NCBI GenBank assembly: GCA_001513185.1 | Contig: LFST01000033.1 | Span: 1-47,965 of the forward strand | Length of the DNA: 47,965 nucleotides | From: Candidatus Fermentithermobacillaceae bacterium DTU015 | Lineage (GTDB): Bacteria; Bacillota; Sulfobacillia; Fermentithermobacillales; Fermentithermobacillaceae | Direction: 5' to 3' | Part shown: one piece after another, positions 16,076 to 28,541 of the stretch | Position numbering within the stretch: the first letter of the stretch is position 1 | Layout of the letters: the number at the start of each line of letters is the position of its first letter | Position numbers and translations under genes: made by a program | The notes under the pieces: model-generated | Databases searched by the model: none | What the model saw: only the letters and a program-made list of their open reading frames with translations | What the model was told of the DNA's origin: nothing

Positions 16076-16101
16076 TGTACATTTGTTCTTGCACATGTTC
16101 A
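16076..16101. promoter_or_regulatory. Palindromic operator TGWACAT-N12-ATGTTCA (candidate SorC-family site)
   Basis: TGTACATTTGTTCTTGCACATGTTCA, directly downstream of a sigH-type -10; 20/26 identical to the site at 28488-28513. Confidence 0.75.
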
Positions 16102-16102
16102 T

Positions 16103-16129
16103 ATTCGACATCAAACACAGAACTCCTTC
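16103..16129 (-). promoter_or_regulatory. SigH-type promoter of the PTS operon
   Basis: GAAGGAGTT-N11-GTCGAAT, close to the SigH consensus RNAGGAWWW-N11/12-RNNGAAT. Confidence 0.65.
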
Positions 16130-16194
16130 TGGGGTTTGAGGATTTCGTCGATTTTTGGCGTGTTAAAGGATGGCAGTGTCAACAATAATGAACT

Positions 16195-16218
16195 GGATAA
16201 CCACTCTAGCGGTTATCC
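16195..16218 (-). terminator. Probable terminator downstream of smpB
   Basis: GGATAACC-N8-GGTTATCC stem followed by a T-rich run on the minus strand. Confidence 0.5.
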
Positions 16219-16373
16219 GGCAATTTAAGCAGGTCATTTGCCGCTTGATCTTGGGGACAGAGCACTTCCATAGTCCTTAAGCGAAGGACTAAAGAGGGGC
16301 AAACAGAAGGTGATAGAGAAGAAAAACAAGGCACAGCGTCAGGACCATAGCCTGTAAGCCTGGTGAAGCCATA

Positions 16374-16841
16374 TCAATAATCCCTTTGCCTCACGGCCCT
16401 CCTGGCTTCACGCTCAAGGTCCCTTTCTCTGATAGCTTCCCGCTTATCGTAAGATTTCTTACCGCGGGCAAGGGCCAGCTCAACCTTAGCCTTGCCGTCC
16501 CTGAAATAAATGGAAAGGGGTACGAGAGTGTAGCCCCGCTGGGCCACCCTAGATGCCAGCTTCCTGATTTCTCTCTTATGAAGCAAAAGACGCCTGGGGC
16601 GCAATGGGTCGTGATTGAACCTGGCTGCCGGCTCGTATTGATCGATATGGGCATTTTTCAGAAATACCTCGCCATCTACTACCTGGGCATAAGCATCCTG
16701 CAAACTTGCCCTGCCCGCCCTGAGGGACTTGACCTCTGTCCCAATAAGGGCAATGCCGGCCTCGATCACTTCTTCGATTATATAATCATGCCTGGCTCTC
16801 CTGTTTCTCACTACCGTCTTGACATTGTCCCGCTTTTTCAT
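16374..16841 (-). CDS. smpB: SsrA-binding protein
   Basis: NRRARHDY, EAGIALIGTEVKSLR, LLLHKREI, GKKSYDKRE. Confidence 0.98.
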   Translation of the reverse strand: MKKRDNVKTVVRNRRARHDYIIEEVIEAGIALIGTEVKSLRAGRASLQDAYAQVVDGEVFLKNAHIDQYEPAARFNHDPLRPRRLLLHKREIRKLASRVAQRGYTLVPLSIYFRDGKAKVELALARGKKSYDKREAIRERDLEREARRAVRQRDY

Positions 16842-16957
16842 AACCTCCGTACTGCAATACCCTGAGCAACACCCTGATCACTTATCCTACGGTCAAATGC
16901 GCTCAGGCTCGCTCAGGGTAATGCAATCACTCCTTCCCTCCCGAAGGGGATCTTACC

Positions 16958-25197: not shown

Positions 25198-26205
25198 TCA
25201 GACGCCCTTCTCGATTATGTAGGAAATCAGGTCTACCAGGCGCTCGCAGTAGCCCCACTCGTTGTCGTACCAAGCCACTACTTTGACCAGGTTGCCGCCG
25301 ATAACCTGGGTGGAAATCCCGTCTACCACTGTCGACTCGGTCATTCCCTTATAGTCGGAAGATACCAGTGGCTCGTAGGAGATACCCAGGATTCCTTTGA
25401 GCTCGTTTGCCGCTGCGCGTTCAAAGGCTTTGTTTACAGCCTCTACGTCGCATTCTTTGGATACCAGGCATGTGAGGTCCACCACTGACACGGTAGGTGT
25501 GGGAACCCTGAAGGCCATTCCGTTGAACTTACCCTTTAGCTGCGGCAACACCAAGGCCACTGCACTGGCTGCGCCGGTTGTGGTCGGAATGATGTTGAGG
25601 GCGGCAGCCCTTGCCCTGCGCAGATCCTTGTGGGGGAAATCAAGGATTACCTGGTCGTTTGTATAAGCGTGGATGGTGGTCATAAGCCCTTTTTCCACGC
25701 CGAAGTTCTCGTCAAGCACTTTTGCCACAGGGGCAAGCCCGTTGGTGGTGCATGACGCGTTGGAGATCACGTGGTGATTTGCAGGATCGTAATCTCCGTG
25801 ATTGACGCCCATCACTATGGTTATGTCTTCCCCTTTGGCCGGTGCTGAGATAACCACTTTCTTGGCCCCGCCTGATTCAATGTGGGCAATAGCTTTGTCT
25901 TTGTCGCGAAACCTGCCGGTGGATTCAAGCACGATATCCACACCCAGGTCTTTCCACGGGATGTTGGCAGGATCTCTTTCGGCAAATACCTTGATCTTCT
26001 TGCCGTCAATCACAAAGCCGTCATCTTGAACTTCGATTTCGCCTTCGAAAGTCCCGTAGTTGGAGTCGTATTTCAAGAGATGTGCAAGGGTCCCGGGATC
26101 AGTGAGGTCGTTGACTGCTACTATCTCAATCTCAGGTGCGCGTTTCGCTGCTCTCAGAAAACGGCGTCCGATGCTCCCGAAGCCGTTGATACCGATTCTC
26201 GCCAT
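25198..26205 (-). CDS. gap: Type I glyceraldehyde-3-phosphate dehydrogenase
   Basis: [31 protein letters not shown] before ATG 26205. Confidence 0.98.
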
Positions 26206-26301
26206 TACCCATTCCTCCTTTAACATTATCTGGTCATTATTATATCTAACACATAACACCACGAAACAGTATTCCCTGGACGTCCCGGATCTTGTACCTG
26301 C

Positions 26302-28032
26302 TTATCTGCTTACAAGCCCCTCCAGGTATGCCCGGATTTCGTCCTTGTCGGTCATCATCCTGACTTTTTCCCAGATGGCTTTGGCTTCCTCGTAGCTTAT
26401 GCTCCTCACGATTTCCTTGGCTCTGGGAACTGACGCAGGGGCCATGCTAAGTTCATCTATGCCCATACCCACAAGTAGCGGCACTGCCGGCTCCATTCCT
26501 GCCATCTCGCCGCACATGCCCACCCAAATGCCATGACGGTGGGCCTCAGATATGGTCCTGGCGATGAGACGCAACACTGCAGGATAGAAGGGATCGCTTA
26601 GATGCGCCACTTTGGGGTTGCCACGGTCAGATGCCATGGTGTATTGGACCAGATCGTTAGTCCCGATGCTGAAAAAGTCACATTCAGCCGCCAGTACATC
26701 CGCCTGGATGGCGGCAGACGGCACTTCGATCATGATCCCTACCTGCACGTTGTCTGCTACCTGGACCCCTTGGGATTCAAGTTCGGCTTTTGCGATCTCG
26801 TACTCCCGCTTGGCGGCCCTAAGTTCGTGGATATCAGCTACCATGGGGAACATGATCCGCAAGGTGCCGAATGTAGATGCCCTTAGCAGTGCCCGCAGTT
26901 GGGACCTGAAGAGTTCCTTCTCTTCCAGGCATAGCCTTATGGCTCTGAAGCCAAGGAACGGGTTTTCTTCGTCGGGGATGTTAAGGTACGGGATGAACTT
27001 GTCCCCACCTGCATCCAGGGTGCGGATTACCACAGGCTTAGGCGCCAGCTGGCTTAGCACCTGCTTGTATATTTCAAACTGCTCTTCTTCAGACGGAGGA
27101 CTGTTTCTGTCGATAAACAGGAATTCTGTACGGAACAGCCCTACCCCGTCTGCGCCTGCATCTAGCACCAGTCCGGCTTCTTGGCCGCTGCCTATGTTGC
27201 ACGCAAGTTCAATCAGATGCCCGTCGGTGGTAATTGCAGGCAAGTCCTTGAGCACGGACAGCTCCTGCTTGCGCCGCTCTTCCCGCTCAATGGCTTCATC
27301 AAACTCCTTGAGTAGGTCATCTTCGGGTTTCACCACAACCCAGCCTTTGTTGCCGTCCATTATAACCAGGTCCCCGTCGCTGATATCCTCTGTAGCGGTC
27401 CCCAGGCCCATCACTGCAGGTATCCCCATGGATCTGGCCAGGATAGCGGTGTGAGAAGTCCTGCCACCTTTGTCAAGTACGATGCCGGAGACATTGTGGA
27501 TGTCGATGGCGGCAGTCTCTGAAGGCGCCAAATCGTCGGCAACGATCACAGTATCAGGCTGCAGCCTGCCTAGCACCACCGCCCGGTCGGCAGTTCCGGT
27601 GAGTGCTGCCAGAATCCGCCTGCCCACGTCCCTCATGTCAGCCGCCCTGGCAGCCAGGTATTCATCGCCCAAGCCTTCGAGCATCTTAGCTTGTTCTTCG
27701 CTGGCTTGTTGAACTGCGTTTTCAGCAGACATCAGGCTTTGGGCGATGCGGCTGGCCACATCTTCAGTGAACCCTGGATCAGACGCCATGAGTGCCTGGG
27801 CCCTCATAATCTCGGCTTCGGCTTCGCCTACCTTGGCCGCCACTTGGTTGGCCAGCTCTTCCAACTGGCTCACGGCGGTTTCCACGGCTTTGTTGAACCG
27901 GGCGATTTCTTTGTCCACATCTGCAGCGCCGATGCTACTTGAGGACCACTCAATCTTCTGGGATTTAAGCACCACTGCCTTACCTTTGCATAGCCCTGGC
28001 GCTGCACCGATTCCTTGAAACTTAAGACTCAT
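26302..28032 (-). CDS. ptsI: PTS enzyme I
   Basis: GGRTSHTAILAR phospho-His, GLFRTEFL, FFSIGTNDL, CGEMAG. Confidence 0.98.
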   Translation of the reverse strand: MSLKFQGIGAAPGLCKGKAVVLKSQKIEWSSSSIGAADVDKEIARFNKAVETAVSQLEELANQVAAKVGEAEAEIMRAQALMASDPGFTEDVASRIAQSLMSAENAVQQASEEQAKMLEGLGDEYLAARAADMRDVGRRILAALTGTADRAVVLGRLQPDTVIVADDLAPSETAAIDIHNVSGIVLDKGGRTSHTAILARSMGIPAVMGLGTATEDISDGDLVIMDGNKGWVVVKPEDDLLKEFDEAIEREERRKQELSVLKDLPAITTDGHLIELACNIGSGQEAGLVLDAGADGVGLFRTEFLFIDRNSPPSEEEQFEIYKQVLSQLAPKPVVIRTLDAGGDKFIPYLNIPDEENPFLGFRAIRLCLEEKELFRSQLRALLRASTFGTLRIMFPMVADIHELRAAKREYEIAKAELESQGVQVADNVQVGIMIEVPSAAIQADVLAAECDFFSIGTNDLVQYTMASDRGNPKVAHLSDPFYPAVLRLIARTISEAHRHGIWVGMCGEMAGMEPAVPLLVGMGIDELSMAPASVPRAKEIVRSISYEEAKAIWEKVRMMTDKDEIRAYLEGLVSR

Positions 28033-28051
28033 TGCCTAACCTCCAATGTAT

Positions 28052-28321
28052 TCAGGATGTAGCTTCAGCACCGCGCATGATAAGGTCCACTAAAGACTCC
28101 AAAGCTTCAGCCTCGTCTTCGCCTTCAGCGCGGATAAGCAAGCTGTCTCCCTGTTTGGCACCTAAGGACAGGACCTGCAAGATGCTTTTCCCGTTGGCCG
28201 TCTTCCCGTTAGCTTCCAGGGTAATCTGGCTCTTGAACTTAGCCGCAGTTTGTACAAACAAAGCTGCAGGCCTTGCGTGTAATCCGACTTCGCTTTGAAC
28301 CACGACTGTTTGTTCCACCAT
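28052..28321 (-). CDS. ptsH: Phosphocarrier HPr
   Basis: GLHARPA (His15) and NGKSI (Ser46). Confidence 0.96.
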   Translation of the reverse strand: MVEQTVVVQSEVGLHARPAALFVQTAAKFKSQITLEANGKTANGKSILQVLSLGAKQGDSLLIRAEGEDEAEALESLVDLIMRGAEATS

Positions 28322-28487
28322 GTTCATAACTCCCTTCAACTCCGCCGGGTCCCAGGCACGTCAGCCCACGGCACCCAGGTCTACTTGCTCGTTTCCTTGC
28401 ATAGTTTTTGCAATATGTGCCCATACTGTGCAGCGGATGCTGGCACATCTTGCGTTGTCAGCTTGTGAGTTCCCCCATCCTCACCCG

Positions 28488-28513
28488 TGAACATATGTCC
28501 TGACAAATGTTCA
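28488..28513. promoter_or_regulatory. Palindromic operator TGAACAT-N12-ATGTTCA upstream of ptsH
   Basis: TGAACATATGTCCTGACAAATGTTCA abutting the -10 element; matches the site at 16076-16101. Confidence 0.75.
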
Positions 28514-28541
28514 ATTCGCCATAGGACGACAAATTTCCTTC
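28514..28541 (-). promoter_or_regulatory. SigH-type promoter of ptsH-ptsI
   Basis: GAAGGAAAT-N12-GGCGAAT. Confidence 0.65.

Follow-up and report, generated by a model that had tools for sequence, protein, structure and literature searches.

The window analysed here, a stretch of 47,965 nucleotides from Candidatus (Ca.) Fermentithermobacillaceae bacterium DTU015 (contig LFST01000033.1), carries a mannose-family gene cluster of the sugar phosphotransferase system (PTS) and, at a distance, the genes ptsH and ptsI for the general PTS proteins HPr and Enzyme I (EI). A similar 26-bp palindromic site stands in front of each of these transcription units, named S1 for the PTS cluster and S2 for ptsH-ptsI. 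The regulatory module shared by the two promoters is genuine, and from the sequence we consider it probable that both sites serve as operators for a repressor of the SorC/DeoR subfamily, most likely the protein encoded at 5680-6639, which would gate the PTS cluster together with ptsH-ptsI. An earlier note on this DNA had claimed that the SorC regulator of the cluster also controls the general PTS proteins. In favour of this claim are operators of the subfamily type, the presence of no other such regulator in the window and a repressor position directly after sigma-H-consensus promoters, but the assignment of the sites to this regulator holds at the family level only.

Direct reading of both sites confirmed the 26-mers named in the earlier note and their identity at 20 of 26 positions. 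Self-complementarity amounts to 22/26 for S2 and 16/26 for S1, and each site consists of two 14-bp palindromes, TGNACAWWTGTNCA in form, with an offset of 12 bp and an overlap of 2 bp. The six differences between S1 and S2 spare the TG-ACA...TGT-CA arm positions, save for one A/T swap at an N position. When the two upstream regions (386 and 401 nt) were aligned locally, the score was 22 compared to 10.4 ± 1.4 (maximum 16) for 300 dinucleotide shuffles, and the aligned module covers 64 nt, from GAAGGA through the palindrome. When the window was scanned for TGWACAT-N12-ATGTWCA, the pattern put forward in the earlier note, with up to two mismatches, matches were confined to S1 and S2 (shuffle mean 0.30; two matches reached in 5 of 100 shuffles). 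A matrix derived from the four half-sites gave scores of 34.8 for S2 and 30.9 for S1, which are circular as the matrix was trained on these two sites themselves; the next best score in the window was 13.8, and the best in 1,276,946 bases of 80 unrelated loci was 16.6. Neither the pattern nor the matrix led to a third 26-bp site in the window, and the 26-bp pattern had no match in the 80 loci listed by the genome scan described below. The 14-bp unit with at most one mismatch was likewise found within the window only in S1 and S2. Folding of the leader RNAs revealed no significant structure (z -0.47 and -1.89), and an Rfam search of the leaders gave nothing beyond one chance microRNA match.

Such a similarity might also be left over from the duplication of a promoter segment, or be due to chance, and then reflect no shared regulation. 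The 64-nt module indeed includes non-palindromic flanks, in line with a duplication, and the count of the 14-mer, taken by itself, is weakly significant, in line with chance. However, the six differences keep the same arm positions that are kept in the DeoR, lsr and plasmid examples discussed below, and both sites head PTS transcription units, which renders a relic or a coincidence very improbable.

The sigma-H motif of B. subtilis is given as AGGAATT-N14-CGAAT in PMC6849360, and a close match precedes each site. On the minus strand, GAAT at 16106-16103 is followed by one nucleotide and then S1, and GAAT at 28517-28514 is followed by S2 with no nucleotide in between, in agreement with the previous claim that both sites lie within 1 bp of the -10 element of a sigH-type promoter. 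With up to one mismatch, AGGAATT-N13-15-CGAAT has three matches in the window (16127, 28539 and 34179), all of them intergenic and on the minus strand, compared to a mean of 0.5 in shuffles, where two or more matches were reached in 2 of 40. As the loose form AGGA-N17-18-GAAT is not rare (eight minus-strand matches in the window, three of them inside coding sequence), it is the tighter consensus that carries weight. A simple scan found no sigma-70-like promoter near S1 or S2, and clear sigma-A promoters were identified elsewhere, namely in front of ssrA (TTGTCA-17-TAGAAT), the PHP gene and gap. No sigH gene is present within the window. The sole other match in the window, a perfect AGGAATT-N13-CGAAT at 34155-34179 (minus strand), is located in the intergenic region upstream of dnaG-sigA, beside TTGACG; it fits the sigma-H promoter of the B. 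subtilis sigA operon. The minus-strand heptamers TGTCGAA (16104-16110) and TGGCGAA (28515-28521) overlap the -10 CGAAT of the two PTS promoters and fit TGNCGAA, the pattern of Spo0A boxes; the dnaG promoter, unlike both PTS promoters, is without this heptamer. By analogy with the complete genome known from the family, a single PTS and the use of sigma-H appear plausible for DTU015, since this genome is described in PMC10215811 as having few sugar transporters and a single mannose-family PTS and as that of a predicted spore-former.

The regulator at 5680-6639 is the sole SorC/DeoR-type regulator in the 48-kb window. It shows a PF04198 domain at residues 69-313 (E 2.1e-60) and helix-turn-helix (HTH) matches at residues 20-70, and no match to the CggR_N domain (PF21715) was obtained. 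Among solved structures it comes closest to K. pneumoniae SorC (2w48, 1.6e-41) and B. subtilis DeoR (8r7y, 1.1e-38), and LsrR (4go1) aligns as well; a NCBIfam DeoR score of 195, below the cut-off of 420, indicates that it is not an equivalog of DeoR. According to structural work on DeoR (PMC11229326), its operator is ATTGAACAAAATTTCAATTACCAATTTACATATGTTCAA, with the ends ATTGAACA...ACATATGTTCAA, base-specific contacts are located in TTGAACA and involve R34 and R39, and DeoR binds as a tetramer, that is, a dimer of dimers. These two named residues, to which the comparison refers, are both aligned to arginines in the regulator (ISRPTVSRLL in DeoR vs VSRVSISRML in the regulator), and the domain make-up is the same. 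The minus strand of S2, ATTGAACAtttgtcaggACATATGTTCA, has 8-nt and 11-nt ends in common with the DeoR operator as printed, ATTGAACA and ACATATGTTCA being identical letter for letter. In E. coli K-12, the intergenic region of lsrR and lsrA contains two TGAACA-N21-TGTTCA repeats. LsrR, which belongs to the same subfamily, reportedly binds these lsr boxes.

A tblastn search of plasmids with the regulator yielded 403 records, from which eight loci were sampled: three of the stronger E-value rows with a regulator named in the annotation and one locus each from five further genera. In five of the eight, the TGNACAWWTGTNCA unit with at most one mismatch was found upstream of the regulator or its operon (Table 1). 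Background for the 14-mer was taken from shuffles (0.06-0.23 matches per tested locus), by which 1.3 matches are expected over the eight whole plasmid loci, and all five observed units fall in small upstream stretches; two matches counted across 1.28 Mb of loci, mostly unrelated and often rich in GC, make too optimistic a background. The unit TGNACAWWTGTNCA hence seems, from these comparisons, to be a recurrent mark of the SorC/DeoR subfamily and perhaps a subfamily-wide operator signature. This recurrence supports the SorC assignment of the earlier note at the family level, and S1 and S2 also show the operator architecture of the subfamily, with TGNACA/TGTNCA inverted repeats as in the DeoR operator, the lsr region and the five plasmid loci.

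Several observations weigh against the regulator at 5680-6639 as the protein acting on S1 and S2. The 14-mer count in the window is weakly significant (two observed vs 0.375 expected; 13 of 200 shuffles reach two), and the plasmid loci of Brevibacillus and Enterococcus as well as the lsr-like locus of L. paracasei, i.e. three of eight, are without the unit. No TGNACAWWTGTNCA unit was found within 285 bp ahead of the regulator gene, unlike in the five positive plasmid loci, reflecting either co-transcription from the S1 promoter or a lack of autoregulation. Furthermore, the units in S1 and S2 are offset by 12 bp, compared to about 22 bp in DeoR by our own indexing of the printed operator and 19 bp in Priestia. 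A spacing of about two helical turns between half-operators, as for a dimer of dimers, is thus not present in S1 and S2, and the geometry of a DeoR-like tetramer does not obviously fit the 26-bp sites. Close relatives of EI (13 clusters with at least 63% identity, one of them a fragment with 79% coverage) outnumber those of the regulator (five clusters with at least 65% identity), and therefore some relatives may have EI without the regulator. Each site also contains one 12-mer (GAACATATGTCC and GTACATTTGTTC can be read in the sites) that is one mismatch away from GAAC-N4-GTTC, the consensus of the LexA (Cheo) box. Finally, as the unit seems generic to the subfamily, the binder could be a paralogue encoded at another place in the genome.

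S1 and S2 would then be real operators bound by a protein from outside the window, either a SorC/DeoR paralogue with a broader role in carbohydrate regulation or a repressor of the LexA type. For a paralogue speak the recurrence of the unit beside diverse SorC/DeoR regulators, the missing autoregulatory unit and a high conservation of the DNA-contacting side chains across the subfamily, as stated in PMC11229326, which may blur the specificity of paralogues; against it, the only regulator of this type in 48 kb adjoins the PTS cluster. For LexA, whose signature would be the 12-mers, there is no rationale for SOS control of two PTS promoters, the enterobacterial units TGCACAAATGTGCA mark the motif as a SorC/DeoR feature, and it is both units per site, not one 12-mer, that fit the family pattern; SOS genes for comparison were not found in the window. 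We therefore regard a binder from outside the window as unlikely.

A dual action has been reported for K. pneumoniae SorC, and the 5680-6639 protein could accordingly bind S1 and S2 as an activator or dual regulator, or the promoters could lie elsewhere, with the sites serving as roadblocks in the leader. The missing sigma-70-like promoter and a promoter call that relies on the consensus match are compatible with both options. In addition, the unit of Priestia is located downstream of a TTGACG-N17-TATACT promoter and, according to PMC11229326, the CggR operator at +32 to +77. On the other hand, S1 and S2 abut the -10 element of the best promoter candidates in an identical register in both regions, a position typical of repression, and DeoR and CggR are repressors as described in PMC11229326, as is LsrR by its gene product name. 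Activation or a roadblock is thus quite improbable.

With regard to the binding protein, its repressive action, the inducer and the use of sigma-H, we infer the following scheme. The repressor, probably the 5680-6639 protein, would be bound to a site starting 0-1 nt past the -10 element and would thereby occlude the start of transcription, so that RNA polymerase is blocked. It would be released by a phosphorylated sugar from the cluster's own pathway, and the sugar-specific PTS genes would then be induced together with HPr and EI, only while sigma-H is active. The gap-pgk-tpi-pgm-eno genes keep their own promoter, to which read-through would at most add transcription. A bolder version, which we consider doubtful, would have the PTS in its entirety (HPr and EI plus a single mannose-family transporter and the associated catabolic enzymes) work as a starvation-gated AND switch in a sugar-poor, spore-forming lineage, with sigma-H promoters limiting expression to the post-exponential state and one repressor freeing both units on its sugar phosphate from a compact two-palindrome operator. 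If so, SorC-family control would extend to the general PTS proteins, with a DNA geometry unlike that of the solved DeoR and CggR tetramers.

The glycolytic genes downstream of ptsI had been suggested in the earlier note to be induced by read-through. This is possible, as the stretch from ptsI to gap showed no terminator on the minus strand, but not needed: a TATAAT promoter of its own precedes gap, and a TATAAT likewise precedes gap in the two syntenic relatives (6535-6643 in L061 and 4281-4376 in L070), and glycolysis does not depend on read-through as gap keeps this promoter. No S1/S2-like site was found at the gap promoter. A cggR gene in front of gap is missing in the window (25198-26262), in L061 and in L070, and is present in the more distant Bacillota L004 and L069.

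A genome scan with iPGM as anchor listed 80 loci with 44-62% identity; the source genome and the carriers of regulator homologues with 65-84% identity are not among the matches listed. Syntenic among them are L061, from a metagenome-assembled genome (MAG) of a Ca. Fermentithermobacillaceae member, and L070 only, both MAG contigs, with protein identities to the window of 54-79%. Both show the order sigA-chrA-chrA-gap-pgk-tpi-pgm-eno-hppA-HD-smpB, in which chrA leads directly to gap, and PHP, ptsH and ptsI are missing before gap in two of two. The "core" ptsH-ptsI of the earlier note are consequently not ancestral at this locus. In L061, ssrA, with the same tag peptide, directly follows smpB (~140 bp), and then MarR, DUF5698 and rph; in the window the whole PTS cluster with the regulator (5590-16373) sits between smpB and ssrA. 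Relative to the nearest kin compared, the window hence carries two insertions, and the same promoter-operator module stands at the head of both. Neither an integrase nor a transposase was seen in the PTS cluster, and the GC content of 0.50-0.57 throughout marks neither insertion. In L070, smpB is followed by a gene of the exonuclease/endonuclease/phosphatase family (13876-14673, opposite strand) and then the contig end, and no tmRNA (transfer-messenger RNA) gene was found in the remaining 1 kb beyond this gene. In this lineage, the junction of smpB and ssrA seems to be variable. EI itself is present in the family, with an identity series of 99, 86, 79, 78% and so on, and 58% in Ca. Fermentithermobacillus carboniphilus. 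For IIC, seven clusters with at least 69% identity were obtained, the window's own included. An IIC with 73% and a regulator homologue with 49% identity are both listed with a longest contig of 29,579 bp from the same source, which hints at a linkage of the two in another genome.

Among known systems, DeoR and its dra-nupC-pdp operon resemble the proposed system also in an operator that overlaps the promoter and in a sugar phosphate as effector. The DeoR operator, however, covers 39 bp at -60 to -21, whereas the sites here cover 26 bp starting from the -10 element, and DeoR targets nucleoside catabolism instead of PTS genes. K. pneumoniae SorC and the enterobacterial sor operons on the Citrobacter and Serratia plasmids share with the window a mannose-family PTS with sugar-phosphate dehydrogenases and a 14-bp unit at the operon head. 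There, the regulator is the first gene, the unit TGCACAAATGTGCA (N = C/G) is accompanied by another, weaker one at a distance of about 140 bp, and no link to ptsHI is visible in these loci; the cluster in the window has two class II aldolases and an Fe-alcohol dehydrogenase instead. For LsrR of E. coli, the arms are TGAACA/TGTTCA, with ACATTTGTTCA in one lsr box, but these arms are 21 bp apart and not 14, and the target is the autoinducer-2 ABC transporter. A footprint of LsrR on cysN (PMC12798060) was uninformative, and "TGAACA" listed with LsrR in another paper turned out to be a primer only. CggR of B. subtilis is a SorC-family repressor encoded before gap-pgk-tpi-pgm-eno, the place that cggR also takes in L004 and L069. 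A CggR identity of the window's regulator was ruled out by the absent CggR_N domain and by sites without the CGGGAC-N6-TGTC repeat, and the gap promoter, unlike that controlled by CggR, is without a site.

Sugar repressors that also control general PTS genes include Mlc and Cra in E. coli as well as SugR in Corynebacterium. The same logic, a local sugar repressor setting HPr and EI alongside its own transporter, is described for C. bescii FruR with FruAB-PtsI-Hpr in PMC8579813. These regulators belong to other families (DeoR/GlpR, ROK, LacI), and in the window two units 12 kb apart share an operator and an alternative-sigma promoter. If the proposed control is true, a bacterium from a barely studied candidate class, that of Ca. 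Fermentithermobacillus (DTU015), couples its general PTS proteins to one sugar pathway by means of a single repressor, and ptsHI joins the targets of SorC/DeoR regulators. No long-standing question is opened by this, local sugar repressors that set HPr and EI levels being known in other regulator families, and the coupling of the PTS cluster and ptsHI by one repressor is most likely a sensible, fairly ordinary case of gene control. Perhaps the more useful by-product is the unit TGNACAWWTGTNCA, which seems to mark operators of the subfamily from Firmicutes to enterobacteria and could help to annotate regulons.

Table 1. Sites, promoters and genes in the window, and 14-bp units in plasmid loci (positions of the latter refer to the respective locus).
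Feature	Position	Strand	Description
S1	16076-16101	no strand	TGTACATTTGTTCTTGCACATGTTCA; operator-like site heading the PTS cluster
S1, promoter-distal unit	16076-16089		TGTACATTTGTTCT; 1 mismatch to TGNACAWWTGTNCA
S1, promoter-proximal unit	16088-16101		CTTGCACATGTTCA; 4 mismatches to TGNACAWWTGTNCA (counted by hand)
S2	28488-28513	no strand	TGAACATATGTCCTGACAAATGTTCA; operator-like site upstream of ptsH
S2, promoter-distal unit	28488-28501		TGAACATATGTCCT; 1 mismatch to TGNACAWWTGTNCA
S2, promoter-proximal unit	28500-28513		CTGACAAATGTTCA; 2 mismatches to TGNACAWWTGTNCA
Sigma-H-consensus promoter, PTS cluster	16103-16127	minus	AGGAGTT (16127-16121), 13-nt spacer, CGAAT (16107-16103); 11/12
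Sigma-H-consensus promoter, ptsH-ptsI	28514-28539	minus	AGGAAAT (28539-28533), 14-nt spacer, CGAAT (28518-28514); 11/12
PHP/HisJ-type phosphatase gene	28728-29534	minus	
ptsH (HPr)	28052-28321	minus	GLHARPA and GKSI motifs
ptsI (EI)	26302-28032	minus	
TATAAT, -10 box of gap's own promoter	26239-26244	minus	between ptsI stop (26302) and gap ATG (26205)
smpB	16374-16841	minus	upstream boundary of the PTS-cluster insertion
Mannose-family PTS cluster	6924-15987	minus	gene order: IIC, IID, class II ketose-bisphosphate aldolase, Zn-dehydrogenase, IIA, IIB, Zn-dehydrogenase, aldolase, Fe-alcohol dehydrogenase, second IID
SorC/DeoR-subfamily regulator	5680-6639	minus	PF04198 and short HTH
ssrA (tmRNA)	5241-5589	minus	tag ANTNYALAA; downstream boundary of the PTS-cluster insertion
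Unit in Citrobacter (L082)	6976-6989		sor operon; TGCACAAATGTGCA, perfect; 11 bp before start codon
Unit in Serratia (L086)	4957-4970		sor operon; 1 mismatch; 10 bp before start codon
Unit in Priestia (L083)	13737-13750		glucitol (gut) operon; 1 mismatch; 38 bp before start codon, downstream of TTGACG-N17-TATACT
Unit in C. difficile (L085)	4938-4951		regulator and 2-oxoacid-dehydrogenase operon; 1 mismatch; 35 bp before start codon
Unit in Klebsiella (L089)	3959-3972		tpi-regulator pair; 1 mismatch; ~200 bp upstream

All genes across the region are encoded on the minus strand. Read from the high-coordinate end, dnaG, sigA, a pair of chromate-transporter genes (chrA) and the PHP/HisJ-type phosphatase gene precede S2, which is followed by ptsH, ptsI, gap, pgk, tpi, iPGM, eno, the H+-pyrophosphatase gene (hppA), the gene of an HD protein and smpB; after S1 come the mannose-family PTS cluster, the SorC-type regulator, ssrA, MarR, the DUF5698 gene, rph and the Ham1 gene. 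The likely start of ptsH is the ATG at 28321 (alternatively 28327), 166 nt downstream of S2. The second IID gene (6924-7823) is full-length and without a partner IIC; gaps of about 190 bp and 285 bp separate it from the Fe-alcohol dehydrogenase gene and the regulator, respectively. A strong hairpin with a weak T tail was detected at 12260-12285 (minus strand; 11 pairs, including nine G-C), where the first Zn-dehydrogenase gene is separated from IIA, and it could split or attenuate the transcript of the PTS cluster.

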